Source: Rhizaria sp. SCN 62-66 (Eukaryota). From it: a stretch of DNA of 64,000 nt. The stretch spans positions 1 to 64,000 of the forward strand of contig MEDY01000036.1 of assembly GCA_001724265.1 (NCBI GenBank), in the 5' to 3' direction. The notes under the pieces are model-generated. The model saw nothing but the letters and a program-made list of their open reading frames with translations. It had not been told where the DNA came from and did no database searches. This document shows positions 7,093-59,700 of this stretch, piece after piece (the first letter of the stretch is position 1; each line of letters opens with the position of its first letter). Position numbers and translations under genes: made by a program.

Positions 7093-10000
7093 TTAGTACG
7101 CGGCCTCCGAGTTCTCCAGCTGCTTGGCTACAAAGGCGGTCTGCGCGATGAGCTAGCGCTGCAGCTCGGGTTCAATGCGCCCGCGCCACTTCTGGATCTT
7201 GGCGTGTGTAAGGTAGCACGGCGCGGTGTGCGCCGTGGTCATGAGCGCGTCGCAGTCGATGGCGCGCGCCGGGAGCGCGGAGAGGAAGACGAAGACGTCC
7301 CCGGGCGTGGAGAGCGCGAGCACGTCGGGCGTGGCCAGGTGCAGCAGTGCTAGCGCGGTGCGGAAGAGCACGGCTGTGTTGCCCTCGGCCAGCATGACGT
7401 CCCAGACGCGGAAGGCCGACTCAGGGGGCAGGATGTCAACGTAGAGACACAGGAACCACGGCAGGCAGATGACGGCGATGTCGACGTTGAGCGCGCGGAG
7501 GTGATCCGCCAGCACCGGGAGCCGCTTGCCGACGTAGACCGAGAGCACGCGCATGTCGGTGCGCACGTCAAGCATCGACGGCGAGTAGTAGTCTGCAGGG
7601 ACGACCGTGGACAACAGCTGGTCAAGCATCCAGAAGGCGCGCTCCTCGGAGTAGAAGAGCAGCAGCGCGGCGGTGATGATGTTCATGCTCTGGCAGTAGC
7701 CGATGCGCGGGTGCTTAAACGAGAACACGGCCAGCACGTTGGTCAGCATCGCCATCCCGTGGTCGGAGCGGAACAGCGGTCGGTGCTGCATCGTGCGCTT
7801 GACGTCCTTCTCGATTTCCTTCTGCGACTTGGTGGGGTGAAACGTGAGCTGCCAGAGACACGTCTCGTAGTAGTCGCTGTGCTCCTGCCGCAGCACGGCC
7901 GCGTCGGCCAGCGCCTCCCACGCCAGCGGGCGCGCCGCGACGGGGATGCCGCGCTGCACGAGCCGCAGCCCCTTCGTGGAGCGCAGGCGGGCCGCGAAAG
8001 ACGCCAGCGCGCGCTCGTCGGGCTCGGAGTCGGAGTTTGCGGCCGCGGCGGGCACGCCGTGGAGCATCTGCCCGCGCGCACCCCAGTCCGCGGGCAACCC
8101 GCAGCCGGCGGCGAGGTCCGCCCACGCGGGCTGCACGGCCAGGCGCGACATGGCGTAGTCTTCGCGCCAGGTCGAGTACTGGATCGGCGATACGTCGCTG
8201 CCGAGCGAGGTCCGCGGCAGCGAGACGCTGCCGCGGCCGCCCAGCTCGGGCGGCATCGACAGCGAGCCCCCACTGGCGATGAGCGCCGTGCTGATGTTGG
8301 CCTCGCTCGCGCTGGCGTTGCCAGAGCTGGAGTGGGAGGGCGAGAGAGTGGTAGGACTCACGGCGGCCGGGGCTGACGACGGCGGCGGCGGCGGGCGCGA
8401 CGGCATCACCGAGTACGCCCGCTTCTGCTGCTGCTGCTGCTGACTGGTCTGAGGCGGCGGCGGCGGCGGTGTGACCGTGGACATGAGGCGCTGCGGGGGC
8501 GCAGACGGTGGCGGCGGCCGCTGCGGCGGGGGCTGCCGCGGCAACGCATTGTCACTTGCACCGGCGCTGGCACTGGCGTTGGCGTTGGCGGCGGCAGCGG
8601 CGGCGGCGATGGCTGCGGCCGACGGCGGCGGCGGGGGCAGGACCGACCCGCGGTGCTGCATTTGCTGCTGACTGGGGGAGGCCGCTACAGAGGGGCCAGT
8701 GCTCGCGGTGCCGTTGGCGCCAGTGAGGACAGACGGGGGGCGGTGCGCGGGCGGCGGGGGCCGGGGGGACACCGCGCCGCTGGCGCTGGCGTTGGTGGGG
8801 CTTAAGACGCTGCCGCGGGAGGCGAGGTGTGGCGGCGGCGGCGGCGGCGGCACGCTCGAGCCCGCACTGGCGCCCGCGCCGGCGCTGGGCGGGGGGAAGA
8901 AGGACGCGGCACCGCTGGCGCTGCTCGCGGCCGCGTTGGTGCTTGCGGCGGCGTTGTTCGAGGGCGAGACGTAGGAGGCCGGGGACAGGGCCATGTGGGG
9001 CGGTGGCGCCAGCGAGGCGTGCGCCGTGGGCAGCGCGGTCGGCGAGCCTGCGATGTTCGCAATGAAAATAAATGCAGAGAAATATGCTCAGTGAGATTGA
9101 TCCAAGATATCATTGAATGATACGAATGAAAAACAAATTAGAAAACATGAACAACAAAAACACACACACGGTAATTACAGGATGATGGCGACATTCACGT
9201 CTAAAAAGTAAGATGAAAGAATTATATGTTGTGTCGATATCGTACCTGGAGGGGACCAGTCGCGGCCGCCATAGTAGTCGTCGTCGTCGTCATCCTCGTC
9301 GTCGTCGTCGCTGCCGCCAGCGCCGTTGCCGCCTCTGCCGTCCTCGGCATCGCCGTTGACTGACGACGCGCGGGTGAAGGTATACGAAGCATCATAGGGC
9401 AGAAACGACTCCGGGAGACCGCCGTCGCCGTCGTCGTCGTCGAAGCCGCCGTCCTCGTCCTCGTCCTCCTCCTGCTCCGGCGCAGCGCCGGCGGCGTCGC
9501 CGCTGTCCGTCTGCTGCGACGAGCTCGCGGTGGCAGCGCTGGCGCCGGGCGGGGGCGCGAAGGGGGGCGGCGGGGGACGCGCGCTGGCGCCGCTGCTGCC
9601 GCCAGCCGAGGGAGCGGGGGGCGAGAAGGGCGGCGGGGGCAGGCCGAGCGTGGGGACCGTCACGCTGCCGCGAGGCACCGCGCTTGCGCTCACAGGCGCC
9701 GTCGCCGTCGCCGTCGTGCCCGCGCTTGCGTTGGCGTCGGTGGGGCTGGCGTCCTGGGCGGCGTCGTCAGCAAAGCGCACGACCTTCTTGCCTCTGCGGC
9801 TGCCGGTGCGGCCCGCGAGCGAGCCGAACACGCCCGTGCCTAACCGCGCGTACGGCGCCGCGGCGGGCTGCTGCTGTTGCTGCTGTTCCGACTGAGCATG
9901 TTGTGGCTGGGATTGGGCAGCTGATAAAGGGGGCGGCGCGGGAGCGCTCTTGCCTGCACCCACACTGGTACTGGTACTGGCACTGACGCTGCTCAAGCTC

Positions 10001-15115: not shown

Positions 15116-18016
15116 ATGGATCCCGGTGGCATCTCTACAGCGTCCTACGCTGGCGCACACGGTGACAATACGCATAGCACAGATCCGAGCAGCATCGCAG
15201 CAGCGACCGCTGCGGCTGCTCGCGCGAAGCGTCCTGCCGACCCGGCGTGGACACAGCCGCCCGGCAGCGCTGGTGACGCCGCCGGTGACAACAGCGGGAC
15301 TGCGCTGGCCCACCCGGCCCCGCCCCAGCCCACCCCAACCCCTGCGACGACCACGACGACGACCGGGCGGCAGCCTCGCGTGGCGGGCGTGTGGCACATC
15401 GATCCCCTGCTGGGCATCCGCCGCCCCGCGACGTCGTTTGTGCAGTTCCAGTCCGAAAGCACGGAACGCATTAAGGCGCACGCCACGGCGACCGGCCAGC
15501 GCACCAGCGCGGCGGCTTCGGCGCTGTGGCGCGACATGCCCGAGGCCGAGAAGGCCAAGTTCACGGCGCGCACCGAGGCCGAGATGGCCGTGTACAACGC
15601 GCGCCTCACCGCGCTGGGCGTGCCCGTTACCGCCAAGGTCGTCTGGGTTGCGCCCGCCAACGGCGCGCCTGCTCTCTTTGTACCCGACACCACAGACCTC
15701 TCCACTGTGCCTTCCTCCTCCTCCTCCTCGTCCTCCTCCTCGTCCTCCTCCTCCTCCTTCGCCGCCGCCGCCGCCGCCGCCGCCGCGGGCGCGGGCGCAG
15801 GCGCGGGCAGCGGCGCGTCGACGTTGCTGGCGGACATGGTGGACGCACTAACGCACCCGCCGCAGCCGGGCGCGGTGATAGGCAAGCGCGCCGCCAAGCC
15901 CCAGTCGCGGCTGGCCGACACTGTTGCCGACCTGGAGGCGTCCCACGCAGCCACCGGCGGCGGCGGCGGCGGCGCCAAGTCCGGCGGCGCGCGCGCGTCC
16001 TTGTCATCCTCATCCTCGGGCGGCCTGACGTCTTCCAGCGGCGGCGGCGGCCTTCACTACGCCCTCGAGATCCCCGTCGCCCGCGCGCGCGCGCTCGCCG
16101 CGGCCCTGCCCGACGGCGGCGCGCTGACGACCGAGTCGGCCACGGTCCTCGCGCGCTGCGGCGAGCTCTTCCTGCTGTGGCTATGCCGCCGGCTGCACGA
16201 GTCGGCCTCGGAGGCGGGCCGCCGCACGCTCACGGCGTTGGACCTGCAGCGCACGGTCAAGACGCTGCCGCAGCTGACGTTTCTGCGCGCCGCACTGGGC
16301 GCCGTGCAGGGCCAGCACATCGTGCCCAACTTTGACACCACGGCCGAGGAGCTCGCGCAGAGCCGGCAGGCCGCGGCCGAGCACGAGGCCGAGGCCGCTG
16401 CGGAGGCTGCCGCCGCCGACGCCGCCGCGGGCAGCGGCAACGGCGGCGCGGGCGCGGCGGCGGGCGGCAAGACGCCCAAGCCCCGCGCGCCCCGCTCTAA
16501 GGCCCCCGCCGCCGCCGCTGCTGCCGCTGCTGCTGCCGCTGCCGTCGGTGCCGCCGGGTCGAGTGATGACGCCGGCGCTGCGGCCACTTCGCTCGGCGGC
16601 CTCGACGGCGACGCCGACGCCGCGGGCGCTGCTGCCGGCGCGGGCGCGACTCCTAAGAAGCCCCGCGGGCCGAGCAAGAAGGCTCTCGCGGCGGCCGCCG
16701 CCGCTGCGACTTCTGCTGCCGCTGCCGAGGCCGCCGCGGCCGCAGCTGCTGCGACAACTGCGGCCGGCGGCACCGAAGCTGAGGCCGCTGCCGCTGCCGC
16801 CGCAGCGATCGCCGCCGTGAATGCCGCTGCCGCTGCCAGCGCCGACGCTGCTGCGGCGGCGCCGAAGCCGCGCGTCTCGAAGAAGAAGGCCGCTGCCGAC
16901 GCCGTTGCCACGGACGACTCCACTGGCACCACGACCGCGGGTGCTGCGGCGAAGGCTGCGACGCCCGCCAAGCGCCAGCCCAAGGGCCGCGCCTCCGCCG
17001 GTGCCGCCGCTGGCGCTGGGGTTGGGGCTGCCATGGGCGGCCCGCTCGTGGATGAAGAGGGCAAGCCTGTTGACGTCAACGACCCCGTGGCGGTGGCGGC
17101 CGCGTCGCTGCTCCACGCCGTGCGTGCCACGACGGCCGCGGTCGCGGCGGCGCTCGCGGAGCGGCAGCGGCTGCAGGACGAGAAGCAGGCGGTGGCGTCG
17201 TTGCTGACCAACACGGTGGCGGCCATGACCGTGCGGCAGACGGAACACGCCGCAGCGGTTGCGGCGGCCCACGCGGCGACGAGCGCGCTCACGGCAGCCT
17301 CCACACAGGCCGGGTTCGGGGCGCTCGTGTCACCCGACATTGCGACGCTGCTGCGGGCGAACCCGGCGACGGCACTGGTGACGGCGCGCCACGACGCCGC
17401 GGCGGCCGCGCTGGACAAGAGCAAGACGGAGCTGGCGGGCCTCATGCAGCAGCTGCAGCGCACACAAGCGCGGCTGAACGCGGCCAACGCGGCGGAGCTC
17501 GCCGCGAACGCCGCGCTCGAGACGGCTGAGGCCGCGCAGAAGCGCGCCAAGGCGGCGTGGACCGCGCATCAGCGGGCGCGGAGCAAGGCCATCAAGGCCG
17601 AGGCCGAAGCCGACGCGGCCGCGGCGCGGGCGGCGACCGGGGACGCGGACGCCGGGGCGGACGCTGAGGCCGAGGCCGAGGCGGAGGCCGACACGCCGGC
17701 GGCGCTGGCAGCGCGAGCGGCGGCGCGCGCCGCGGCCGCTGCAGTGGTCGCGGCTACGGCGAGCGCGGGCGGCGCGGCGGGCAAGGGGCGGCAGCAGCAG
17801 GCTGCCACGGCGGCGCTGATGCAGAGCATTGTGACGACTGGACAGCAGCAACAACAGCTGATGCAGCAGCAGCAAGCACAACAGCTGCTTCAACAGCAGC
17901 AACAGCAACAGCAGGCAGGCGTGGTGACGCCGGAGGCGCAGTTGCTTTTTGCTCTCGTGCAACAACAGCAACAGCAGCAGCAACAGCAGCAACACTTCAT
18001 GAATGACAACATGTGA
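15116..18016 (+). CDS. HMG-box plus H2A-type histone-fold (NF-YC/POLE4/CHRAC-like) protein with Ala-rich, coiled-coil and poly-Q regions, 966 aa
   Basis: HMG box RRPATSFVQF...ASALWRDMPEAEKAKF...EMAVY (~15415-15610). Histone fold IPVARARALA...ESATVLARCGELFL..L...RRTLTALDLQRTV...LTFL (~16070-16290). ATG at 15116, TGA stop. Confidence 0.8.
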   Translation: MDPGGISTASYAGAHGDNTHSTDPSSIAAATAAAARAKRPADPAWTQPPGSAGDAAGDNSGTALAHPAPPQPTPTPATTTTTTGRQPRVAGVWHIDPLLGIRRPATSFVQFQSESTERIKAHATATGQRTSAAASALWRDMPEAEKAKFTARTEAEMAVYNARLTALGVPVTAKVVWVAPANGAPALFVPDTTDLSTVPSSSSSSSSSSSSSSSFAAAAAAAAAGAGAGAGSGASTLLADMVDALTHPPQPGAVIGKRAAKPQSRLADTVADLEASHAATGGGGGGAKSGGARASLSSSSSGGLTSSSGGGGLHYALEIPVARARALAAALPDGGALTTESATVLARCGELFLLWLCRRLHESASEAGRRTLTALDLQRTVKTLPQLTFLRAALGAVQGQHIVPNFDTTAEELAQSRQAAAEHEAEAAAEAAAADAAAGSGNGGAGAAAGGKTPKPRAPRSKAPAAAAAAAAAAAAVGAAGSSDDAGAAATSLGGLDGDADAAGAAAGAGATPKKPRGPSKKALAAAAAAATSAAAAEAAAAAAAATTAAGGTEAEAAAAAAAAIAAVNAAAAASADAAAAAPKPRVSKKKAAADAVATDDSTGTTTAGAAAKAATPAKRQPKGRASAGAAAGAGVGAAMGGPLVDEEGKPVDVNDPVAVAAASLLHAVRATTAAVAAALAERQRLQDEKQAVASLLTNTVAAMTVRQTEHAAAVAAAHAATSALTAASTQAGFGALVSPDIATLLRANPATALVTARHDAAAAALDKSKTELAGLMQQLQRTQARLNAANAAELAANAALETAEAAQKRAKAAWTAHQRARSKAIKAEAEADAAAARAATGDADAGADAEAEAEAEADTPAALAARAAARAAAAAVVAATASAGGAAGKGRQQQAATAALMQSIVTTGQQQQQLMQQQQAQQLLQQQQQQQQAGVVTPEAQLLFALVQQQQQQQQQQQHFMNDNM

Positions 18017-18501
18017 GCATGCTTATGCTCGCTAACGTCACCTTACAATTGAAATACCGATTGCTATCTATATATTCATTAATCGAGTCGAGCTACGCAC
18101 ACATTTACGTGACAGGCCGCAAATTTAGCTACATGAGCGTTGCGTCTTAGGGTCGTGTCGACTGTTATGTAAGTTTTTGAGTCATAAAACACTATGTACA
18201 AGTGTTAATACACAAATTCTCTATCACTTCCTAGAGTTGGCCATGAAAAGCTGTATATCCTCCTACAAACATGTGTTTGATGGAATTTAACCAGTGACGG
18301 GCTTAACACTATCAATCGCGCCCAGCGACTGCTATGATGGCCGGAATTTTCGCAGTAAATCCCGAACTCCCCAGTCGTTATTATAAAATGAATCTAGCTG
18401 CAAAGGAGAGAAATCTTTATATTTTGTATGCATTTCTTTTTATATTTCAAACCACGCTGAATGCCATTCTCTTTGGAATCTTTTGTTGCGTAGCTGCCAG
18501 C

Positions 18502-21500
18502 ATGGATCGCGGATCCTTCAATGGTCCTCCGCGACCAGGTCCTGCAGTGCCCCGGCTTTCCCTTTCCCCATCAGACTCTTCCCGCAGAGCTGCCACACCA
18601 GCTCACACCGTTGTGCCGAGCGTCTTTGCCCGTCCAGAAGACGATGCACTCGTTCAGCATCTCACTGCAGCATCAGTCGCCGACACCAGCAACTCTCGTC
18701 ACCCCTTGGCGAGTGCTGGCGTACCTTCGAGGACTCCAAATAGCGTCCCAGCTCCGCTCAGTGCTGTGACGCCCGCCCGACGTAACCCTGACCACGCGCC
18801 CCAGCTCCCGCGGCAGGCAGGACGTCACCCGCCGCGTCCCGCCGCGGTCCCCGCCTCTGCGAGCACGGTCAACGTCGACAGCCTCGGACTGCACTTGTCA
18901 CGCAATAACAGCGAGAGCTTCAGCGTGATCAACAACCACTCTGGTGCTTTTGCTGTTTGTGGTGAAGCCGGTGATGCTGCTGAGGACGATGTAACGCCAC
19001 AGCAACACAAGCGCCCGCGACTGGCAGCGCCACCGCTGCTGCAGCGGCTGCCGGCGCAGCACCCGCTACCTGCGCGCGCTCATGCACCGCAGGCGTCCAA
19101 TGTCCACGTGCAGACAACAACACTGTTGCCACAGCAGCAGCACAGGGCCGCAACGCCTGACTCAGCGGTGACGCCTGTGGCTGTCACGCCTGGCATCGTA
19201 AACACTCCCGTCGCACCATCTCGACTTGCGACGAGAGAGGCCACGCTTTTGCCTGTGCGAAAGTCTCGTGCAAGCCAGTTGGCGAGCGCGACAGGTAGCA
19301 GTGCGGCAGGCAACAGCTTGGGGGAGCCCGTTCAAGGTAGTACGAACAATATCTACAGCAGTCACTTTGACGATATCAGTGACGGCTACGATGGAGGTAT
19401 TGACTATGCGAGCATTGCTCTTGCTGCGTCCAATGTATCCAGCGCCCATACCAGCATTAGCACCCGCACCGAAAGCGCGAATATCAATCACATGAACAAT
19501 CGCCATATGTTTATGACCCCTGTTGACACTTCTTCAGGCACTACTGCTCCGCACAAGCAGCATGTTGCTAATCGTCACTCGACTGCTGTGAACGTAGTGG
19601 TGAGTGATATCGACGATGAGTATGAGTATTACGACTCGAATACTCATGCCGCCGGCGGCCGCAACAACATCACAGGCAAGAACGCGCAACACCAGAACGT
19701 ACGTGCATATGGTGGTGCTCGTGCTGCGCGCGCGCCGCCACCGATGCCGAGTATCTCTCCACTGCCGCCTAATGTGAACAACACCGGCGTGGGCATGAAC
19801 AACTCGAATACCCAGACGGAAAACGCGTATCTGCCGACGACCAATCCTGTCAACACTGGATCAAGTGTCAGTCAAGGTGTGCATGCTAGTGGCAGCGAGT
19901 ATTCGCCGTTCTATCAGACTCCATCAGCGCCAGTGCAACACCAGCACTACAACAAACTTCAGCCGCAGCGGAGACACATGCCACAACATGGTATTAACAA
20001 CAGCGACTCGACTAGCGATATGGCGACCCCTGGTAGCGCTACTTCTGGCTCCGTTGCTCGTTGTGCAAAGACTTCCACGCCAAGTGTTGGTAAGCACACA
20101 CATGCTTCTGTGCAGCATGGACACCTTCAACATCAACACCAGCCTCTTCAGCAGCAACAGCGCCGTAAGCCTCCAGTTGCCCCTGTTCCGGCTCTCTCTC
20201 CCGCACTGCCGGTTGCAAAACAGATTGGCCTAGTGAGTTCAAGTGCTGGTAGTGTAGGTGCCGATGCTGCTGGTGCGCTCGATGACCCTCTTACTATGGC
20301 GATGGCAGCAATCAAGAACTTTCCCGTTGCGGACTCTGGTGCTCGCGATGCCGCGCAAGCGCAGAACCGCAATCGGGCACCCAAGAGCAAGACTATGAAG
20401 CATGGCAACATTGCTAGCGAGTCCGACAACGCCTATGACCAGCATGCAGACAACCCTGACTTCAATGAGAATATTAACGACGTCGACGACGGCCATCTGC
20501 AGCAACAACACCAACAATACGATGCTCGTGCCAGTGATGCCGCTGCAACTAATTCCGACAACATTGGATGGGGAAACAACACTCTGACAGGTGTCAGTGA
20601 CGACGACGGGATCTCAGTGCTCTCGCTTCCGCGCCTGATGGCGTCCTTCTGTTCAGTCACCATGACGCCGTTGCTCCCACTAACGCACTCCATCACTGTC
20701 ACGGCGCGCAACAATATCGGCAACACCAGCAACCGTGATCCGAGTGCAGCCCTGGGCGCGAGCACAGCAATCAGCGACGCCGGGAGCTCTGCTGTGAGCG
20801 ATCGTGGGAATCTAGCGTCAACTGGTCGTGGCGGTCATGAGCATTTGCTGACTCTGAACAATGAAGATCTTGATTCTGCCGTGTTATCCTTTGCACCACC
20901 TTCTGGCCCTCAGATCCAACCCTACCGGCGCACAACATCCAAAACGAATACTTTTGCAACTGTATTTTCGAACGCCGTTGTTGGAGCAATTGCTGCAACC
21001 TGGGCTAACATGAGCACACGTGCTGATGACGCCGTTCCTGTTAGCTTGGCCGATCGTGCTCGTGCTGCTGCGAATGTTAGTATTCTTAATAATATGCTAT
21101 GCGAGTCTGTCACCCCAGTCCCCTTCATCTCCGCGCTGCCCCCTATCCCCAACGGCTTAACCTACCACGCGTCCCTCATGCCGACGGTAATCCCTCCTCC
21201 CGTTCCCGTCACTGCTATGAGGCGGCGCCACTTACGCGAGCCTGCACTAGTGCCCTTGCACTCGGACATGACTCGCGACGGCAGTGACATCGACAACAAT
21301 AGTGGCAGTGGTAGGGATACTGGTGTAGGTGCCTTGGCACTCGGAGGCCGACTGTGGGCATCGTCCGCCAATCCCATTCTGTTTCTCACCACCGCTATCA
21401 ACAATCACATGAATAACCATACTTTGTGGACCGAAATCGTCAACGGCCACAGTGCAGGCAGCCGGAACAACAACGGTGTGAAGCAGGCACGATTGATGCA

Positions 21501-24500
21501 GCATTTGGCGACTTGCGACAGGACGACACGATCGCAGGATTTAGCTGCTCTTGTAGTCGCGCTGCTATCGCCACTGACGTCACCGTCGCACGCGCACGTT
21601 CACGGCGGCAGTAACGGCACTGCTCGAAATTCGGACACCAATTCTGGTAGGCCAGAGACTTCCAGCGTCAGTACGCCGTGTCACACCGCTATTGTCGACT
21701 ATCTAAGTGGGCGGGCACGTCTTGTGCGGGCATCGGCATTGCTTGGCACGACGAAGGCTGTTACGTTCTACGCCAACTCGTTTTCGACGACAAATCCTAG
21801 CAATCATGCTGCCCAAGCTCCGGTGTTGCCGCTTTGTGGTGCCGATGCATACGGACTTGGCGTATTGTTGTCGAACTTATCTATTGCAACAACACATGGT
21901 GCACACAGCTCTAACTATGCTCGCGGCATGAAGACAAGGGTAACCCGTGTCCGTGATTATGCAGCTGCTGTCGCAACGGTCCACACTGCCCTCAGTGCGC
22001 ACGCAGCTCAAGCAGCAACAATGACTGTGCACCCCTCCAATGCGACACTTTCTGACGACTCTCAGGACGAGCTCGGATCACTGACTGTTGCTGCTCGCTG
22101 TGCGTCTCTCTCGGCTGCGCTGCCGCTCGGCTTGCCTTTTTACAGCCGCCTAGACGTAGTCCCTTGGCGAACTACCCGCGTCACTAACGCCCTGCATTTG
22201 CTCCCTGCGCTTGCCGTCACACAGACGAACACAAAGGCTTGTAATGACCACGATATTGTGACACGTACTAGTAATCGCACCCAAAAAAGCAATCATGACA
22301 ATGGAGCGACCTCAAGCGCTGTTTCCGATGCCCCCAGCTGTATGTCTACAGTCACTTTTGACCCCACCGTTGTGATTCCGACTTACGTTCGGCAAGATAT
22401 CCACCGCTATGCACACCTATACCCCTCAGTGCCGACTGCAAATCCACCGTTAGTCGTTTCCGCAGCTGCAGCCGCGGCACTTGCGTGCGGTGCGGGTGCC
22501 TCTCTTGCCACATCTATGGGCGCGAACGCATTCGGTTCAGGTGCAACTGGCACTTGGGGCACTGCCGGGAAAGGCGCTGTTGAAACACCTTCATCTTTGT
22601 ACAAGGCAGGGTCAGATCTACCTATCTCCGTTTGGGACTATGTCAGCGCGCACAGTGTTGAAAGCGAAACATGGGAATGGTGGGCACAAGCTGTGACCGC
22701 GAGGCTTGCTGATAGTCACGGCAACAAAGACTCAACTTTGTATGATGATCTAACGAGTGCGAGCGTGTATGATGAATACGATCGCCACAACGAGCGCAAA
22801 ATGGCCGACGACACTATCGGAGATGATCACAACATGTCGGTTGCGCGTGTAGCAGGTGCGGAAAAAACGAATGCTAACACAACACCGCAATCTACTGCTG
22901 ATGTTCTGCTGTCGGTCGACCCCCTGCTACGATTCGCTGATCTGTATCTCACCAGCGACAGCGTTATGCTTCATAACCACGAAGCAGAGATTCCCGCGCA
23001 GCAGCTGGGCAGTGACAGTGTTAGTGACGATGCTTTGTTGCTGTCTGTCTTGTCCGCCGTTCTGTCTTCCTCGGCAACTGCACATGGGTTTATGACGGCG
23101 CGTACTTCGATTACAAAGTCAGCCGCTACTGCATCCACGACCAATAACAACTCTTCATCCGGGACTGCGACGGGTAATGCCGGTGTTGCAATTAATCGCG
23201 GAAAGCAAAAGCAGCGCGTGGCAGGGCAGTTTGTTGATGCTGGAAACTGTGACGAGGTTGATGGTGCTATCAAGTCTGAAGCCAATGCCAAGCTCGGCAC
23301 TAAGACGAAGATGGGTGGTCGGAACTTGATCATGCCAGTTCCTGACTTCACCGCAATTGAGAACCACAATTTTAGCGCTCCTGCGGCTGTTGCTCCAAAT
23401 GCTCGCAATAATAATAACAAGAACTACAATACTAGCAACAGCAGGAATCAGGTAAGGTCAACTGTTCCTTTGTCTGCACAAGAGACGCCGTATACACCAC
23501 AATCACTGAGCACGCCCGGGGCAGCGCTCTCAGTCACGTCAGCAGTCCCAGTAGCGCATTCGAATGCCGCAGAAGGAGCTGCAACGGTGCACGCGGTCGC
23601 AACGGCAGCAACGCCCGCGACAACCGTAACTCCTACCACGGTTGTTGACAGTAACAACACTCGTGGACACGCACGCGCCACCGCTGCGGCTGCTGGTGCC
23701 CCGCCGCGTCCTCCGCGCGATTCAAGCATTGCTAACAATGCTAGCAACATCTCTACGATTGTACAGTTCAGCACTGCAACTAATGCCAGTCGTGGTCTCG
23801 CATCACAAATTGGCGTTACGAGTAGCGCTGCAACACCGCTTTCTGGCAGTGATCTGAGGACACCTGCGAACCCTATCACAACGAAAAGTGCAGCACCTAT
23901 CGCGCGGAAGCGGGCTCTTGAATCAGACCACGACGGCGATCGTGGCAACCATGATGGTAACGGTCAAAACTCGAGAATTCAGTTTGCCCCTGCTCACAAA
24001 ACTAACCATCCACATGCTGCAACAGCAGATATGTCCGCACATGCTCTTGCGAACACCCATAGAAACGCGCATTCCGACTATGGTGTGGATGCACACATTC
24101 ATTTTGCAGCTGGACCCGACGCTGGTATCGATGGATACGGATATGGGGCTGAAGCTAATGACGACGACGAGGGTGATGACGAGGATGACGAAGTAGTCAG
24201 CGAGATCAAGTGGAAAAATCACTCTCGCCTACGTCGCCATTGCCGTGAATGTGCCACGATGTATGTTGCACGACAGCTCCAGCAGACCGCGGACGATAGC
24301 GACTCGGTTGCTGTTGACAAGTCGTCAGCGCTGTACGCAGCTGCTCGCGATCACGCTTCTTTGGTGCCGCTGTACCGCGCGCTGTTCTATCAAGCCAAGG
24401 CGTTGCTGTTCCCTGAAACCGGCCGGTTTAGCGGACGTGTGTTGCTGTCGACGAACGCAGTTGCGAGGGCCGTGGCAGCTGCCTTTGCATTAATTGCCCC

Positions 24501-24996
24501 GATCAACAGCAACAACCACGGGGCCAATAACCCGAATGTCAATAACAGTCAGGACTCGAGTGTGAACATGATTGATAACAACACCCCATGCACTCAACCT
24601 CAAGGCCCGCGTGTACTTGCTGTACCGGCTGCACCAAAGCCCTATAACAACCGTAGCAATATCATTCAGAGCACAAGTGAGAGCTCTCTTATTAACCACA
24701 ACAACTCACGCACTCGTTCAAGTGTGCACTCATCGGTGCACTCGAACGCGCAGTCGTTTGTGCACGTCCAGTCAAGGTTGCAAATGCAACCATCCCAGCT
24801 CCAATTTCAACAGCAACAACATCCACGAGCTGGACAGCAACAACCAGGTCAAGGTTTGAGTCGGTCCTACAGTCAGAGCGAACCTACTCCTGTCACACCA
24901 CCGAACCAACCCCTGCGTACGCGTGACGCTCACGGCCGTTTGGTCGTCGGTGACCAGCAGCAACCACAACATCGTCGAGATGAGCAGAAACAGTAA
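18502..24996 (+). CDS. Large intronless hypothetical protein, ~2164 aa, mostly low-complexity/disordered
   Basis: 6.5 kb uninterrupted ORF flanked by AT-rich DNA; likely ATG at 18502 (upstream in-frame ATGs from 18334 lie in AT-rich sequence); TAA stop. No family recognised. Confidence 0.75.
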   Translation: MDRGSFNGPPRPGPAVPRLSLSPSDSSRRAATPAHTVVPSVFARPEDDALVQHLTAASVADTSNSRHPLASAGVPSRTPNSVPAPLSAVTPARRNPDHAPQLPRQAGRHPPRPAAVPASASTVNVDSLGLHLSRNNSESFSVINNHSGAFAVCGEAGDAAEDDVTPQQHKRPRLAAPPLLQRLPAQHPLPARAHAPQASNVHVQTTTLLPQQQHRAATPDSAVTPVAVTPGIVNTPVAPSRLATREATLLPVRKSRASQLASATGSSAAGNSLGEPVQGSTNNIYSSHFDDISDGYDGGIDYASIALAASNVSSAHTSISTRTESANINHMNNRHMFMTPVDTSSGTTAPHKQHVANRHSTAVNVVVSDIDDEYEYYDSNTHAAGGRNNITGKNAQHQNVRAYGGARAARAPPPMPSISPLPPNVNNTGVGMNNSNTQTENAYLPTTNPVNTGSSVSQGVHASGSEYSPFYQTPSAPVQHQHYNKLQPQRRHMPQHGINNSDSTSDMATPGSATSGSVARCAKTSTPSVGKHTHASVQHGHLQHQHQPLQQQQRRKPPVAPVPALSPALPVAKQIGLVSSSAGSVGADAAGALDDPLTMAMAAIKNFPVADSGARDAAQAQNRNRAPKSKTMKHGNIASESDNAYDQHADNPDFNENINDVDDGHLQQQHQQYDARASDAAATNSDNIGWGNNTLTGVSDDDGISVLSLPRLMASFCSVTMTPLLPLTHSITVTARNNIGNTSNRDPSAALGASTAISDAGSSAVSDRGNLASTGRGGHEHLLTLNNEDLDSAVLSFAPPSGPQIQPYRRTTSKTNTFATVFSNAVVGAIAATWANMSTRADDAVPVSLADRARAAANVSILNNMLCESVTPVPFISALPPIPNGLTYHASLMPTVIPPPVPVTAMRRRHLREPALVPLHSDMTRDGSDIDNNSGSGRDTGVGALALGGRLWASSANPILFLTTAINNHMNNHTLWTEIVNGHSAGSRNNNGVKQARLMQHLATCDRTTRSQDLAALVVALLSPLTSPSHAHVHGGSNGTARNSDTNSGRPETSSVSTPCHTAIVDYLSGRARLVRASALLGTTKAVTFYANSFSTTNPSNHAAQAPVLPLCGADAYGLGVLLSNLSIATTHGAHSSNYARGMKTRVTRVRDYAAAVATVHTALSAHAAQAATMTVHPSNATLSDDSQDELGSLTVAARCASLSAALPLGLPFYSRLDVVPWRTTRVTNALHLLPALAVTQTNTKACNDHDIVTRTSNRTQKSNHDNGATSSAVSDAPSCMSTVTFDPTVVIPTYVRQDIHRYAHLYPSVPTANPPLVVSAAAAAALACGAGASLATSMGANAFGSGATGTWGTAGKGAVETPSSLYKAGSDLPISVWDYVSAHSVESETWEWWAQAVTARLADSHGNKDSTLYDDLTSASVYDEYDRHNERKMADDTIGDDHNMSVARVAGAEKTNANTTPQSTADVLLSVDPLLRFADLYLTSDSVMLHNHEAEIPAQQLGSDSVSDDALLLSVLSAVLSSSATAHGFMTARTSITKSAATASTTNNNSSSGTATGNAGVAINRGKQKQRVAGQFVDAGNCDEVDGAIKSEANAKLGTKTKMGGRNLIMPVPDFTAIENHNFSAPAAVAPNARNNNNKNYNTSNSRNQVRSTVPLSAQETPYTPQSLSTPGAALSVTSAVPVAHSNAAEGAATVHAVATAATPATTVTPTTVVDSNNTRGHARATAAAAGAPPRPPRDSSIANNASNISTIVQFSTATNASRGLASQIGVTSSAATPLSGSDLRTPANPITTKSAAPIARKRALESDHDGDRGNHDGNGQNSRIQFAPAHKTNHPHAATADMSAHALANTHRNAHSDYGVDAHIHFAAGPDAGIDGYGYGAEANDDDEGDDEDDEVVSEIKWKNHSRLRRHCRECATMYVARQLQQTADDSDSVAVDKSSALYAAARDHASLVPLYRALFYQAKALLFPETGRFSGRVLLSTNAVARAVAAAFALIAPINSNNHGANNPNVNNSQDSSVNMIDNNTPCTQPQGPRVLAVPAAPKPYNNRSNIIQSTSESSLINHNNSRTRSSVHSSVHSNAQSFVHVQSRLQMQPSQLQFQQQQHPRAGQQQPGQGLSRSYSQSEPTPVTPPNQPLRTRDAHGRLVVGDQQQPQHRRDEQKQ

Positions 24997-25830
24997 AAAC
25001 ATGTCTTGACTGCACCATTCTTTGCCGAAGACCACCTGCTAATTGCGGTTTGTCTCCGTGTCACACTTTACACTCCATAAACGTACTTCCCAATTGGGGC
25101 TTCATATTCAGATTTTAGACTTTTACAATAGTAAATAATCAATACATCTTGCGATCACCAGATTTAGCTCACTTCTTGCAAAACACATCGTTATTTGTAC
25201 CAGTTTCGTTCCGGTACTAGTATGTAATTGTAGACAATAATGAATGAGGCTCTGCACAAAAGATTCACGTATCAATCATAATCAGCCTTGACGGGAGTGT
25301 CGATTCAAGCGACAAACCAGGTTGCGGCTCTACCAGATCACAATCGAAAGCTACGACGATCCCCGAAGTCAGTCCGCAAGGCTGGCTTCGAACACATGAC
25401 GATCATGATGTCAAAGGTCAATGAGCCATTCAATGTACGTGAAGTTATTTTTCGCATTCTGGGTGAAAACTTGACACTCCGCGATTCATTCCCTGCCCGC
25501 GCTCTGTAATTTTGCGGATTCTAATCAGTCGCCGTGCAGTCTTCATAACTTGGCAAATAATAAAACTTGGTGGTAAAACGCGGGCGTTTACCAGCACTTG
25601 GCTAGTATGTGGGCTTAGAATGATGTTATGCTGGCAGATTGAAAAGACCGCATAGCTATGTATTCAATGACTGATGTAAGACGTCTCAAAACATCAGTGG
25701 TGGAAACAAAGACGAAGAATACAAGAATACAATATTTGTCACAAGTGGAGATGCACATATAACATCTGATGGTCATATCGGGATCATACAACACAACATT
25801 CGGTGATGAGTTGAACGGTGATGATCATAC

Positions 25831-25878
25831 GGAACTGCATACGCACACGATTCCGGAACTGCATACGCACACGATTCC
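25831..25878. repeat. Perfect 24-bp tandem duplication (GGAACTGCATACGCACACGATTCC x2)
   Basis: Copies at 25831-25854 and 25855-25878, directly adjacent with no spacer. Confidence 0.9.
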
Positions 25879-26115
25879 AAAGCAGTGAATATGACTGGAA
25901 CAGAGGGAAGAACTAGAGAACGGAAGAGGCAGAGAAAAAAACATGTACAGAAAACATAGCGAAAACGCAAAGATAAGGGTGTGCGTTGGCAATCACATTC
26001 ACACAAGACAATCTGAACCGTAAGCAATATCGAAAGGCAGCGTCTTAAATCGCTGTGCAAAAGGATATTAGCAAAATATCCTTAAGTTGCTGGAGGCGAG
26101 AAAAGAAAAAGCCAT

Positions 26116-27208
26116 TTACCGGAAGAAGAGAAGCGAACATAGTTTCTTAAGAATTGCCACGACCACAATCAGCAGTCCCATTAACCTGAGTACAAAAAGA
26201 CACATCGTAAAATAAAACAAAGTAAGTACAGTAGTCATTTATGAGAAACATCCATGGACATTAACATGGCAATTAGAAAACAATATGATTCAATCCAGCA
26301 AGTGCACATTAAAAAATCACGTTTAATGTTGGTATATTTCACTTCACAAGTGAAACTTGGGGACGTGGGGACGTGGGGACGTACTTGAGAATGAACATCG
26401 AGTTGTCGTGGAGCTTAAACTCGAGCTTCTTGGTCTTATCGTTGTACACCTCGGGGTCCTTCTTGACCCACCGTGGGTAGCACTGCACGCACAGGTCAAC
26501 GTCGGCCACCGTGCTCGGGCCCACCACGCCCGCCAGCGCCGCAGTCGCCGCGGCGGGCGGGGCTGTGGCGTTGGCCGCGCCCGGGGCGGAGCCGGCCTTG
26601 GTGTTCTTGTAGTAGTTGTACAGATTCTGTTTGCCACATGCGTCGCACTGGTGCGCGCCTGCGCGCCGCGCAAGCAGCGGCAGCAGCGCCTCCATGCTGG
26701 CCGTGACGAACTCGCCGAACTTGCGGCCGACGCTGCCGCCCTGCTCGGAAACGCGCGTGACGGTCGCGTCCGAGGGCTTGTGTAGCGCCACGGCGGCGAC
26801 GGAGCCCGTGACCAAGAGCGCGGTCGCCTCAGACACGTCCGCGATGGCCTCGCGCGTGTTGGCAATGAACTAGTCCGCCGCGGCGAGCGTCGACGGCATC
26901 ACGCTCTTGGCCAGCGCGGGCGCGGGCTCGCGGGAGACACGGGGGTGGTCGTCGTCGTCAGCGATCACAGGCAGGTCAAGCGGCGGGAGGCTCGTTGTGT
27001 TGTCTTCGGGGGCGTCGGCGACCATGTCGTAGTCGGCGTCGTCCTTGTCGAGGTGGGTCGAGCTTGACAGCGCGGGCATGGACGGGGGCGCCAGCGTTGC
27101 AGTCTCAGAAGCAGCATCAGCAGCAGAGTTGGAGTCGGCGGTGCTGTGCGTGCTGTCAGTGGGGGAGACGCACTCAGGATCGGCGTACAAAGCGGCGGAA
27201 TCACTCAT
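26116..27208 (-). CDS. Hypothetical protein with a degenerate ZZ-type zinc-finger-like motif; exon 27208-26385 (contains an in-frame TAG) and a tentative last exon 26185-26116
   Basis: ORFs 26870..27208 and 26339..26836 share one frame, separated only by a TAG. HQCDACG...YY...DVDLCVQCY motif; GTACGT donor at 26384. The last exon (hydrophobic tail, TAA) is speculative. Confidence 0.65.
26870..26872 (-). other. In-frame TAG, candidate sense (Gln) codon
   Basis: GCG GCG GAC TAG TTC ATT GCC AAC ACG CGC GAG: coding-like codon bias on both sides and no intron signals. Confidence 0.7.
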
Positions 27209-27851
27209 TTCGGTGAGAGATAAGCGCTAAGAAAGATTGGTTATGGTTGGAGGACAGGAGTGTCGGTTAGCAGGCGATAGTTGGGTAGGAGCAAGAGGAT
27301 GCAGTCAGCAGTCAGCAGCGCATCTTTTGAGACGTGAAATAACAGCAAAGACCTATGCATTCTGGGTGTTATGATTTGAGACAAGATATGTGCATATCTA
27401 TTTCTATCGAAAAGATGTGAAAATTCCCACTCTGTCGATCAAATTGCGTTATTTCAGCTGTTTCTGAAATCCGCCACACCACTCCTTCAATCCAACCACA
27501 AATCGGTTTTGCGTCACCATGGTCACAAGTCACCGTCTGGTCAGTCGCGACTAGGATCTCCCGCCCGCGTGCCGCTCCGACAAGAACGCGTGAGGTCGGT
27601 GTTGTGAATATCTTTTGCGCATCGCGGTTAGTTCTTTTACAACATCTTGCTTTTAAATGTTGGATGATCACGTGACTATTAACATACAAGAAGATAAGTC
27701 GTCGTCTTTGCCAGTTTTTGCCACACGCTGATGTGCTCCGCAAACGCCGCACTTCGCGCCCACTGATTCGTGTCAAGAGAACTCACTAGTACTCTTACCC
27801 TTACCATTAAATTTTATTTCACCCTTTTCATTCTACATACAGGTGACTGCG

Positions 27852-28886
27852 ATGTCATCGAACCACAACATCGCTAAGATCAACCGCGGCCCCAGGTTCC
27901 TGGAAGTTGAGGGACAGGAAGGCTCTTCGGTCTCAGCTTCGGCAGCTGTCGCACCAACAACGGAGCGCTCAAAGGAAGCCGTTTTCTTCAGGATCGGTAG
28001 CCATAGCAAAAAAAACCGCAACGACAATGATGTTGAAAACAAGGAAATCGCTGCTGTTGATGGTCCTGCTGTGGCTGCTACTTATACTCCGATTTCGGCT
28101 CACCGGAGTTCCGCAGTCGCTGGGCCCTCTGCCATCATGGCAGCACACATTAAGCCGTACGGTCCTACTGTAGCAGCTGCCAGGCAATCTGTTATTGTCG
28201 CCGAACGCGAGCTCAGCTGGAAGTCCAAAGCGCTGAGCATAATCGTCCCGAAGAGGCTGTCACTCGCCGATATTGCGACGCAGGCTGACTGTGCTGTGGC
28301 CGAGGCGAAGTTTAACAGGGCAACTGCTGAGCTCAAACGCGCAAAGACCGAGGCTAAGCTACGGATGGCGCATGAAAGCGTGACTACTGCTCATACTGCT
28401 GTCGCTAACGGAGTTTCTGGAGCATACACTGATCTGGCGGCGACCGAGGCAAATCTCAAAAAGGTTCAAGTTGCGCTTGAGACGGCGACTACAAAGCTTG
28501 AAGTCGCTGATGGGAAGCTACGTACAGCCAACTTCAAGTTAGACATTGCATGTGCTAAGCGTGACTCCGATGACGCGCGTAGCACCGCGAGCGACGCTAG
28601 TTGCGATGTCACGAACTATACCAAACTGTTTGACTTAATATACAACGACGTGATGAAGATTTTCAATCAAAAGAGGAGGCGTGAGGTCAGTGAGAGGGAT
28701 TACCGCAGGGATGGCCTCGCGATGATTCTGCGTGGGCCGGCTGGCACATTTTGTAACACGCGACAAGAGTTCCCCGCTGCGGAGTACTTTGATTATCATC
28801 TGAAAGCAACAACAATCATAACACGATATTTGTCATCATATACGTATACGTACGAGTATTTACTCATATGTATTTATCAACACTAA
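27852..28886 (+). CDS. Hypothetical protein, ~344 aa, with a central Ala/Lys/Glu-rich coiled-coil-like segment
   Basis: 1 kb ORF with weak GC3 bias; heptad-like stretch AEAKFNRATAELKRAK...LKKVQVALETATTKLEVA; TAA stop. The AT-rich 3' tail may be intronic or degenerate. Confidence 0.55.
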   Translation: MSSNHNIAKINRGPRFLEVEGQEGSSVSASAAVAPTTERSKEAVFFRIGSHSKKNRNDNDVENKEIAAVDGPAVAATYTPISAHRSSAVAGPSAIMAAHIKPYGPTVAAARQSVIVAERELSWKSKALSIIVPKRLSLADIATQADCAVAEAKFNRATAELKRAKTEAKLRMAHESVTTAHTAVANGVSGAYTDLAATEANLKKVQVALETATTKLEVADGKLRTANFKLDIACAKRDSDDARSTASDASCDVTNYTKLFDLIYNDVMKIFNQKRRREVSERDYRRDGLAMILRGPAGTFCNTRQEFPAAEYFDYHLKATTIITRYLSSYTYTYEYLLICIYQH

Positions 28887-56700: not shown

Positions 56701-59700
56701 ATGAGCACTGTTGGCGGTTCACTGGTGCTGCGAGAGTCCTTATTCTGGTGATTAAGCTGCTGAGAGTTCTGAGTGAACGACTGTGCGTTGACATTGCGGG
56801 CAAACTTGTCCGTGTTGGGGCTTGTGCTGGTGCCAGCGGAGGACGAGGACGAGATGGTGATTGCCGATTGAGAGCGAGGCAGTCCGAAGCTGTTCGCGTT
56901 GTCGTTGATGTTGTTGTTTTTTGTCGCACCGTTGTTGCCAAAGATGGCGTCGTATTCATCTTCGATTCCGTCATTCATAGCCATGTTGGAGCGAACAGTG
57001 TTTGTCTTCGACTCGTCGATTGAGTTTTTGCTGCCACCACCATCACCTTGCTATTGCTGTATGGTCGCGGTTTGCGTCTCTCCATTGGCCAACGGAGCTT
57101 GCCTTGTTCCATCAAAGCCATGCGTATGCTCCAGAGCGTGACTGTGACCGTGAGCGGACGAGATGTGACTGCTTGAATGACTCTGCGCAGTGCTAAAACT
57201 GTTAGATTCAAGACTGGCGTGACTATGCAAGCTCGACCCACCCTCGTAACCACCATAGATCACACTACCAGCCGCGCTCCCAGCACTGTTGCCTGTAGGC
57301 ACACCGTTACGACTGGCTTGGCTATTGCCAGCGTTGTTGTGAGGACTCACGTTGGCGGAGACAGTGACGATGCTGCTGCTGGGGGAGAAGGCACCGCTGA
57401 GGTCGCCTTGCGTCGGAGTCACCATCGGCGCTGGCAGCGATACGAGGCCTGTCGGCGCAAAGTCGGACACGAGAGGCTTTAAGGCGGGCTCCCATCCAGT
57501 GCCAACACTCACAGTGCTGCTCCGAATCCCAGAGTTACTGGGATTCCGGCCAAAAGACTGACTCTGCCCCTGCCCCTGACATTGATCGGCAGCAATAGAG
57601 CTTGCACTTGTGTTCATGCGAATTGCGGGATTTGACTTGTTGAAGTCGGCAGTTGCAGATTGATTGTCGTCCTTCAATGATTCGTAATCGTCTGTATCTT
57701 GCATACTCGCAACCTTGCTCTCCACACCTGCGTGAGAAGTGGACACGGGCCGTTCATGTTCTTGTTTGACTTCCTGTTGCAACTGTTGTTGTTGCTGCGC
57801 GTGACTTGCCAGCCGCTGGCGCAGCGGCAGAGTGTCGAGATCAACATCATCGAAGTTAATGCTACCGCTGCCATTTACATTGACGTCGCCAGCACTTTGA
57901 ACGGCAGCAGCAGTAGCCACTGCAGGAGTCTTACTGGAGGTCAACACAGCCTCGCTATCACGTGCACCCCGAGTGATAGCGGCGGCGCCCGCCATCGCCG
58001 TCACCGCCTGCGTCCGCAGCTTCTCATTGGCAAGGAACGGGTCCGTGGGGGGCCTCCCGCCCAGCGCCAGCGCCGCCCACAGCCAGCCCACGGTCACCAC
58101 GGGCACGCGCGCACACAGCGCGTGCGCTACGGCGGCCGCGGTCGTCGTACGGACCACGACCGAGGGCGCGGGCGGCGCCGCGGCGGTCGCGACGGTGGTG
58201 TGGGTGTGTTTAGCAAGCAAGCCAAAATACGGGATTGGACGGTCACCAAGTGACGCCGCCGCACTGCTCGCATTCGCGTTATTGCTGCTGTTGATCGCGT
58301 TGCGCGTGTTGATGTTCGCGTTTGCAGCAGTGCTCGCGTGGACGCTGGCGGCGCCGCCGCTGTCACCCGCCGCCGTGGCCGCAGCGACGAGCCCAGCGAT
58401 GGACGGGTCGTCCGCCAGCAGCAGCCGCTCCAGCCACGCCAGCAGCGCGGCGTAGTCGGGCACGATAAAAACCGACGAGTGCGGCGGCAGTGTGAGCTGC
58501 GTCTGGTGAAACACGCCCGCCTGGCGCAGCAGAGTGACGATCTGCGTCGTGACAAGCGGGGAGAAGCCGGGACCGAGCACCGGCAGCAGAGGTCCGTCCG
58601 CCGCAGCGGCAGCAGCGGAGGCCGGCAGTAAAGCGGTGAACAGAGTCAGACCGCGGCGGGTGAGGGGGCGCGCCTCGGTCAGAAGCTCCGTGGTGAGCGT
58701 GGCGGGGAGAGACAGCTTTGGCAGTGGGAGCGCCGATGCTGCGGAGCTCCCTATAACCGCGTCGCCAGAGTGAGAAGACGAGCTCGTGTAGCCGCTGTTA
58801 TTCGTGCTAATATTATTCGTAAAAAATAAGATGCAGAGCTCATGCGAGATGATCGTTTGCGCCAAGAGTGACAGCAACGAAGTTGTGCAGTGGGCTGTCA
58901 CGAGCGCAGACTCAGTATCCTTATTGCTATTCAGGCTTGCAGACACGCAATTAGTGTCGCCGCGAGTTCCGGTAGTGCGAGCATGCGTTCGCAGACTTGC
59001 GACACTTGAGGCCAACACAGGGGCGAGAAATGCGGTGGCGTCGCGCGAGACGGACAGCGGCCGCAGTGAGGCAGTCAGGGGTGCAGCGGCGGCGGCGGCG
59101 AGTGCGCTTGTGGCGAGGATGCGCTTCAGCTCGGCCGGCATAGATGGCGGCGGGAAAAAGCGACTCGTGACAGTGAGCAGTGGGGCGTTCGCAGCAGCGC
59201 TAGCAGTAGAGCTATAGCTGGAGTTGGTTGAACCGTAGCTGTTGGCGTTGGAGCCCAAACTTGCAGCGTTGCCATATGATCTAGGGCTCGAGCTCCTGCT
59301 GCGTGAGAAAACGCTGTAGACGGTTGCACATGTATACGTGTACGATGTCAGCACCTTGACAGCAGACGCGCGCGCGCTCTCAACAAGAGAGTAAACACGG
59401 TTTAGCCTCTCACTAGCGCTAAGTTCACTTTCACACTTCAACTTGTTCCGTGTGTTCTTCGAGCTCGAGGTAGACGTATTAAGGGCAGTGATTGTGGTGG
59501 TTACAGCAGCCCAGAGACTGTGTGTGTACGCGCGCACAACATCCCCTGCATCAATCACACTGGCGCTGGCACTTGCAGCCGACAAAGCAGTGCGGCGCGA
59601 TGCAAGATCCCCCGCCAGAGCGAGCAAACTGCGCACAGCCTCGGTTTCCTCGCCGGCCAGCTGCGCGCCGCCGATCGCGGTCACGCTCGCGACGCTTGCG

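Follow-up and report, generated by a model that had tools for sequence, protein, structure and literature searches.

An in-frame TAG in a ZZ-like gene points to UAG as a sense codon, probably for glutamate, in the nuclear genome of a putative cercozoan

Introduction

A ZZ-like gene on the minus strand of the window (the whole 64,000-nucleotide stretch of DNA analysed here, with which contig C36 of assembly G000 begins) carries a TAG triplet at codon 113, raising the question of whether UAG stops translation in this nuclear genome or is read as an amino acid and, in the latter case, as which one. To our knowledge, reassignments of UAA and UAG in nuclear codes almost always go together. A sequence-only reading of the window had proposed that the gene is a single coding sequence read through UAG, and that it adds a further, independent site in support of reassignment. 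Here, this proposal is followed up in the assembly itself (eukaryotic, 34.9 Mb in 714 contigs, with GC3-rich and intron-poor genes), in public sequencing runs and in the literature.

Structure and transcript of the ZZ-like gene

The in-frame TAG was found in the context STLAAAD-TAG-FIANTREAIADVSEATALL, exactly as the sequence-only reading had given it, within a minus-strand frame opening at an ATG at position 27208. The gene comprises the following features:

26870..26872, minus strand: in-frame TAG (codon 113 of the gene), aligned to Lys (AAG) in the homologue P0003 (locus L138)
26385..27208, minus strand: coding exon 1, from the ATG at 27208, with 274 codons and 2 bases
26186..26384, minus strand: GT..AG intron of 199 bases, with donor and acceptor read and a joint skipping 199 bases in one contig of run X2
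26116..26185, minus strand: coding exon 2, encoding a hydrophobic C-terminal tail up to the TAA at 26116-26118, the C-terminus of the homologue being similar
25758..27230, minus strand: spliced transcript contig of run X2, UTRs included, whose ends are contig ends and not transcript ends
26825..26929, minus strand: stretch of residues 94-128, flanking the TAG on either side, that is conserved in the homologue, from the alignment
26480..26653, minus strand: degenerate ZZ-type zinc-finger-like segment (residues 186-243), with a Pfam ZZ match below cut-off

Because the X2 contig skips the 199-base intron, which is invisible to plain ORF reading, the gene model was corrected to include exon 2 and a product of 297 residues. 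A gene end at the TGA at 26339 was thereby ruled out in favour of the true end at TAA 26116-26118. The same skipped GT..AG intron indicates that the X2 contig is cDNA despite its automatic label as DNA. Running from 27230 to 25758, it spans the TAG, which lies inside exon 1, 485 bases upstream of the exon junction, and carries it unedited (contigs drop rare variants), so that the RNA continuity that had been suggested as a check is present. A short tandem repeat with an 8-base unit, each copy holding a GT, lies at the 5′ end of the intron beside the true donor (26356-26380), and a 23-base direct repeat is found in the 3′ UTR in the vicinity of 25829-25879.

Codon use agreed with the earlier description of GC3-rich codons on both sides of the TAG, with a GC3 of 0.84 for the frame and coding scores of 11.6 and 10.3 for the two flanks under a codon model trained on the organism's own genome. 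The claim that the downstream part lacks a nearby ATG was also borne out, the next methionine being residue 172; its distance is 59 codons rather than the approximately 55 first estimated. The gene is single-copy in the assembly, and a CAG-bearing paralogue, named beforehand as a finding that would speak against read-through, was searched for in G000 and not found.

Part of the locus is contained in 16 public runs, labelled, where a label was given, as bioreactor, wastewater, sludge or digester. Comparison at the TAG of four runs (X2, X4, X7 and X8), from three studies other than the possible source study, revealed the codon unchanged in each of them, with no other letter and with at least 60 bases on each side, which removes the earlier concern over the base call; the X8 contig carrying the TAG stems from a poly(A) library. 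No strain polymorphism able to reveal a synonymous partner codon was seen at the TAG in these four runs. At 26601-26695, the zinc-finger part is matched, with 11-13 differences, by contigs from X4 and X8, which represent the homologue of a related species in the same samples.

Homology search with the joined protein yielded a single full-length homologue, P0003, which is 47% identical over residues 22-277, is encoded by one unbroken ORF ending at TAA and has a similar hydrophobic tail; the residue aligned with the TAG, which the sequence-only reading had wished to see, is lysine. A metagenome scan for further homologues returned locus L138 only. The homology on both sides of the TAG to this uninterrupted protein, together with the spliced mRNA containing the TAG, supports the view that the ZZ-like gene is one coding sequence read through UAG.

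The ZZ-like motif placed downstream of the TAG proved to be degenerate, and the ZZ label is a loose one. Compared with the ZZ-type zinc finger (PF00569), the protein shares the outer (first and last) CxxC pairs and a DLCxxCY motif, but it lacks the middle cysteine pair, contains a low-complexity insert, carries a hydrophobic C-terminal tail and scores below the curated cut-off (E=0.003-0.017, 15.4-17.8 bits versus 21.4). The read-through protein gave no match to Pfam at E<=0.01. The nearest Atlas cluster is ZZ (score 0.75, a lead only), and an AlphaFold2 model built from a two-sequence alignment, with a pLDDT of 41, was set aside. Judging from its sequence, the product may be a tail-anchored membrane protein with a small zinc-binding domain.

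Stop codons across the genome

Stop codon usage was surveyed in 1,010,702 bases (the window and fetched loci, partly overlapping, with sites de-duplicated), a non-random sample of about 3% of the genome. A strict scan for stops with coding sequence on both sides revealed nine TAG, no TAA and no TGA; a looser scan revealed 20 TAG, three TAA and one TGA, the last four of which resemble true gene ends. At gene ends, as called by the codon model and not by homology, stricter limits gave 25 TAA, 24 TGA and no TAG, while looser limits gave 32 TGA, 25 TAA and two TAG (n=59; local null 21% TAG, P=1.2e-4). Both flagged TAG ends were rejected, one being in the wrong frame and the other continuing to a TGA. 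As a codon, TAG occurred 18 times in 193,332 codons (about 1 in 10,700), with one of the 18 probably an intron acceptor, and in the same set CAG was counted 6538 times, GAG 7651, CAA 1120 and TTA 270. Extrapolated to the whole assembly, with roughly half of it taken as coding, this frequency would give some 600 exonic TAGs. Such a rare and disfavoured codon is as expected for a young or inefficient reassignment.

Exonic TAG codons were found in the genes for eRF1, UBE2J1, six kinases, a USP5-like protein and the ZZ-like protein. The kinases comprised 142 matches, nine of them interrupted by TAG only, with six exonic sites and three probable intron acceptors, and the 26 UCH matches contained one exonic TAG site, which is uninformative on the residue. 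No exonic TAG was seen in 10 dynein heavy chain loci, where in-frame TAGs lay at intron edges. Kinesin (54 matches), DEAD (42) and Ras (36) showed one TAG each, all intron acceptors; ABC (19), WD40 (147), AAA (21) and AMP-binding (17) matches showed none, and in SNF2 (22 matches) TAG was present only alongside other stops. Kept outside the counts were TAG-only matches on contigs C18, C208, C505 and C291, one TAA-only kinase match and one TAA-only kinesin match.

Next to the TAG of the ZZ-like gene, the window contains:

57051..57053, minus strand: second exonic TAG, in the context Gln-Gln-TAG-Gln, at codon 2302 out of 3415 in a multi-BRCT (TopBP1-like) frame
7153..7155, minus strand: third TAG, codon 614 of a RabGAP-TBC gene, with 19 further coding-like codons before the TAA at 7093-7095

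The TAG of the RabGAP-TBC gene is likely read as sense. Window TAGs in DUF2039, DIM1 and HAT1 frames are intronic in appearance and were left out of the counts.

Several unusually long frames were noted along the way. The multi-BRCT frame (53709-63956, minus strand) is intronless and swollen by Ala/Asn/Ser low-complexity inserts, and the standard code splits it at its one TAG. Two long plus-strand frames in the window (18334-24996 and 27852-28886) have a GC3 of 0.53, versus 0.8-0.9 in most neighbours, and no Pfam match. On another contig (G000:C34, approximately 14184-16400, minus strand), WD40 repeats lie within an open frame of 10,115 codons.

A tRNA with a CUA anticodon

A CTA anticodon-loop pattern gave eight matches, one of which is a full tRNA (G000:C84:76008-76080, minus strand) with a complete cloverleaf, a 4-base variable loop and an Rfam score of 58 bits. 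The gene is single-copy, is followed by a T run and lies on a contig with host-like genes. Among the tRNAs recovered (63 of 506 candidates scored), its nearest relative is the tRNA-Glu(CTC) of the same genome (47/73 identical), followed by Glu(TTC) with 40, Lys with 39 and the Gln tRNAs with 33 and 29. Its T stem and first five acceptor pairs are those of tRNA-Glu(CTC), and it shares the U1-A72/C2-G71/C3-G70 stem and A46 with both Glu tRNAs. Its anticodon loop reads A36-A37-A38, in place of the C36 and C38 of both Glu tRNAs; this triple A is the usual site of A37 isopentenylation, which would help the reading of UAG. The 'Pyl' tag that ARAGORN attached to this tRNA derives from the anticodon; the tRNA has a standard cloverleaf and is matched in Rfam by the generic tRNA model, and tRNA-Pyl has G1-C72 (PMC9976931) where the CUA tRNA has U1-A72.

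The identity elements are mixed. The CUA tRNA retains U11-A24 and U13-G22:A46 and is without base 47, all of which are Glu determinants in E. coli (PMC9976931). C36, which contributes strongly to Glu identity, is gone, and in amber suppressors of E. coli the U35, G73 and U1-A72 found in this tRNA promote charging with Gln (PMC9976931); these determinants are known from E. coli, and eukaryotic rules may differ. GluRS and GlnRS are encoded by one gene each, without duplication. No tRNA with a UUA anticodon was present among 27 matches to a pattern that is blind to intron-containing or long-arm tRNAs. Because a CUA tRNA cannot pair with UAA, the two codons would be uncoupled in this genome. Elsewhere in the assembly, loci L094 (G000:C647) and L091 (G000:C675) hold mirrored, inverted tRNA clusters (Gly-Asp-Glu ... 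Glu-Asp-Gly) and five Val(AAC) copies.

The release factor eRF1

The only eRF1-type match among three PF03463 matches is a gene on contig C63 that ends at TAA and has an in-frame TAG of its own at residue 107 in human numbering (L032:1594-1596, minus strand; G000:C63:103463-103465). Residue 32, which is Thr in 117/117 homologues, is Ser in this protein. The T32S, G57S and L124M changes are unique to it among these homologues, and T58K and M34V are shared only with P0009, a JGI protein that is the closest eRF1 relative (84%) and has Thr32 intact and Val at 107. The residues E55, NIKS, S70 and YxCxxxF are kept.

The third-position G of UAG lies opposite Thr32, which is replaced by Gly in Iotanema and intact in its standard-code relatives (PMC5304391, PMC9161772), from which we infer that T32S may reduce the recognition of UAG. 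The T32S change retains the hydroxyl, and the case for a side-chain effect is weaker because a simulation study places the contact of Thr32 with the third-position G on the backbone (PMC5681627). T58K is found in ciliates with the standard code as well (PMC5304391 supplement 6). Since P0009 has Val at 107, this column appears relaxed in the lineage, and P0009 is a candidate sister lineage from before or during the code change. The TAG in the eRF1 gene might be an autoregulatory site and could equally be neutral; autoregulation of plant eRF1 by readthrough has been reported, apparently with a different design (PMC5397192).

The residue inserted at UAG

The sequence-only reading had not specified an amino acid for UAG. 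Alignment columns at the best-sampled TAG sites point to acidic residues. Position 107 of eRF1 is Glu in 106, Asp in 10 and Val in one of 117 homologues, with no Gln or Lys. The UBE2J1 column (150 matches, three of which were excluded for nearby gaps) contains 91 Asp, 21 Glu, 12 Asn, 11 Ser, five Thr, five His, one Cys, one Gln and no Lys (n=147), with a small bias from the Glu that the query had at the site. In kinase L085, the two nearest paralogues have Asp at the TAG site. Conversely, the organism's own ubiquitins have Gln at the ubiquitin-fusion site, the TAG copy being divergent at several positions elsewhere too, human NEK1 has Gln at the NEK site, and solved relatives have Ala or Lys at the CAMK site; two further sites are neutral between Glu and Gln. 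No TAG was seen at an invariant catalytic residue among the sites read.

Pfam scores summed over six sites were 653.3 bits for Glu, 651.5 for Gln, 650.8 for Lys, 649.5 for Asp, 646.9 for Ser, 646.5 for Ala, 640.8 for Tyr, 638.5 for Leu and 636.9 for Trp. The margin of Glu is only 1.8 bits over Gln and 2.5 over Lys, while Leu, Tyr and Trp fall 12-16 bits short over these six sites and were rejected.

The neighbourhood of the TAGs gave a different picture. Around 22 exonic TAGs, the Q-minus-E score was +23, with a median of +26 for Gln sets and of -20 for Glu sets (97.5% limit -4.8), and an adjacent Gln was present at 27% of the 22 sites, versus 28% of Gln codons and 8% of Glu codons. This test is confounded, given that a transition converts CAG into TAG and that poly-Gln stretches tolerate a Gln-to-Glu change. 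Per source codon, Gln runs yielded TAG at a rate of 3/1217 and acidic runs at 1/834, which fits either residue. Taken with the body of the CUA tRNA, the acidic eRF1 and UBE2J1 columns make the residue lean towards Glu, which we regard as probable.

Lineage of the host

Axonemal dyneins and mitochondrial carriers are present in the assembly. Its ubiquitins begin with Met-Ser-Met-Gln, and a 91% identical match begins with Met-Ser-Gly-Met; insertions of residues ahead of the ubiquitin Met are characteristic of Rhizaria (PMC6133090). The eRF1 residues M34V, I38V and L126M are common to Guttulinopsis (PMC5304391 supplement 6). Together, the ubiquitin start and the eRF1 residues hint at Cercozoa as the host lineage, which is not fixed by the lists of eRF1 and ubiquitin homologues.

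Some ubiquitin and rRNA loci are unusual in their own right. Loci L066, L069 and L192-L195 encode a ubiquitin approximately 85% identical to the canonical one with a Met-Ser N-terminal extension, also on a probable ubiquitin-L40 fusion, and no true polyubiquitin junction was seen in the loci read. At L068:1495-2100 (G000:C681), ubiquitin is joined to Peptidase_S74 (endosialidase chaperone; Pfam E=4.5e-9) and a coiled coil, with the TAG in the ubiquitin part, and this fusion possibly originates from a mobile element or virus. The 18S rRNA gene (L065; G000:C706:4459-8903) is 4.4 kb long, AT-rich and divergent, with several large group I intron-like insertions, the first of which presumably encodes a His-Cys box homing endonuclease.

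Discussion

The internal stops that are TAG only, the gene ends without a credible TAG, the CUA tRNA and the altered eRF1 together bear out the proposal that the ZZ-like gene is a further site of reassignment, and UAG is very probably a sense codon in the nuclear genome of this uncultured wastewater protist. That no reassignment has taken place is accordingly hard to believe. The specific reading in which UAG alone is reassigned, UAA and UGA still serve as stops and the CUA tRNA most likely inserts glutamate is, in our judgement, probable. The ZZ-like gene would then encode one 297-residue protein with Glu at 113, because this is the residue proposed for UAG.

In the mechanism that we propose, UAG would first have become rare at gene ends, and a duplicated tRNA-Glu(CUC) would have mutated to CUA and then drifted, giving the present single-copy, tRNA-Glu-derived tRNA that decodes UAG, most likely by inserting glutamate. 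eRF1 would have loosened on UAG via changes in its third-base pocket (T32S, with G57S, T58K and L124M), and new UAGs would have arisen by point mutation and been kept where tolerated. The TAG in the eRF1 gene might in turn act as negative feedback, with a UAG-competent eRF1 cutting short its own synthesis. Somewhat better than even odds attach to the fuller picture of a probably cercozoan, non-ciliate flagellate at an early stage of a code in which UAG is Glu and UAA and UGA are stops, possibly with a feedback valve in eRF1.

Glutamine, as in the codes of Iotanema, Hartmannula and Trochilia, is an unlikely alternative for the residue: GlnRS might charge the Glu-bodied tRNA via U35, G73 and the weak U1-A72 pair, as E. 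coli amber suppressors are often glutaminylated (PMC9976931), or a tRNA-Gln(CUA) might have been missed, with five tRNA-Gln(CTG) genes available as seeds for a CUA anticodon and 63 of 506 tRNA candidates scored. The Gln-like neighbours of the TAGs, their poly-Gln contexts and the Gln at the ubiquitin and NEK sites fit with this, although the neighbour signal is confounded as described above, Gln occupies the TAG column in none of the 117 eRF1s and only one of the 147 UBE2J1s, and it is the Gln tRNAs that the single CUA tRNA found resembles least. Rather less likely again is an ambiguous UAG, in which a chimeric suppressor accepts Glu from GluRS and Gln from GlnRS and TAG persists where both residues are tolerated. 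Such ambiguity would suit the mixed columns (three acidic, two Gln, one Lys and the remainder neutral), the extreme rarity of TAG and its absence from invariant catalytic residues, and a CUA tRNA with determinants of both kinds (PMC9976931); slow decoding or a recent origin would explain the rarity equally well, however, and neither synthetase gene is duplicated.

It is very unlikely that the TAGs are fixed nonsense alleles or pseudogenes with at most leaky amber suppression, UAG remaining mainly a stop. The sites are few, many lie in low-complexity stretches of a metagenome-derived assembly, and eRF1 retains its conserved motifs. Moreover, UAG closes only 4% of genes in a relative of Iotanema that uses the standard code (PMC9161772), so that low use of UAG at gene ends is by itself no proof of reassignment. 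Nonsense decay, however, would also yield internal TAA and TGA, of which none were seen against nine TAG; eRF1 would itself stop at residue 106; there is no credible TAG in 59 gene ends; and the identical allele recurs in three other studies, also in spliced mRNA. An error in sequencing or assembly, editing of the TAG in the RNA, or a pair of distinct genes are exceedingly improbable: a gene caller did separate the downstream part as P0002, which is what the standard code leads one to expect, but the homologue is one ORF, and no other letter was found at the codon in 4/4 runs, RNA included.

Codon statistics, a putative suppressor tRNA and an altered eRF1 come together in one genome, with a close relative that keeps Thr32 in its eRF1. 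The order of events thereby becomes testable, that is, whether tRNA or release factor changed first, and whether by codon capture or by way of an ambiguous intermediate. For eukaryotic genetic code expansion, a natural UAG-blind eRF1 variant, if this is one, would be useful. In practice, standard gene callers cut short some genes of this organism, including that for eRF1.

Comparison with known codes

In the literature consulted, nuclear codes that recode UAG alone comprise Leu in the rhizarian exLh and Gln in Iotanema spirale (Panek et al. 2017, PMC5304391) and, among ciliates, Leu in three TARA MAGs and Gln for Hartmannula sinica as well as Trochilia petrani (McGowan et al. 2024, PMC11687900). 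UAG as Glu is combined with UAA as Lys in Oligohymenophorea sp. PL0344 (McGowan et al. 2023, PMC10553269), and both UAR codons are Glu in peritrich ciliates and Blastocrithidia (PMC10553269; PMC12153298). A combination of UAG as Glu with UAA and UGA as stops was not met in a literature search by title and abstract start, with thin coverage of subscription papers.

Like Iotanema and exLh, the present genome very probably reads UAG as sense and has UAA as stop, and a CUA tRNA was predicted for those organisms as well. The residue is probably Glu here, versus Gln or Leu there, and the CUA tRNA gene was found here and, according to PMC5304391, in neither of them; outside ciliates, the CUA tRNAs of UAG-only codes were not found in the literature consulted. 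Thr32 of the eRF1 GTS motif is altered in Iotanema too, although as T32G rather than T32S, and the N-domain as a whole matches neither the Iotanema nor the exLh row (PMC5304391 supplement 6). The mitochondrial carriers and axonemal dyneins are a further difference. A UAG=Leu code of the exLh type was rejected, with Leu 14.8 bits under Glu and a tRNA whose variable loop has four bases instead of a long arm.

The phyllopharyngean ciliates likewise recode UAG alone, and two of their genomes have CUA suppressors derived from canonical tRNAs (PMC11687900); unlike them, the present genome is GC-rich, ends its genes about equally with TAA and TGA, has a Glu-type tRNA body and uses UAG very rarely. 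PL0344 would resemble it in reading UAG as Glu through a tRNA-Sup(CUA), uncoupled from UAA (PMC10553269). In PL0344, however, UAA is sense as well, UGA is the sole stop and both codons occur in 95.9% of genes (PMC10553269), whereas here UAA is a main stop and no UUA tRNA was found. The change from stop to Glu is also seen in peritrichs and Blastocrithidia, where both UAA and UAG are recoded. Codes with UAR as Glu, or with UAA as Lys and UAG as Glu, were rejected for this genome, TAA ending 25/59 genes and never being internal in the strict scan. The present code is probably a new variant, with UAG as Glu; if the residue is Gln, it would still be an independent new origin of a rare code.
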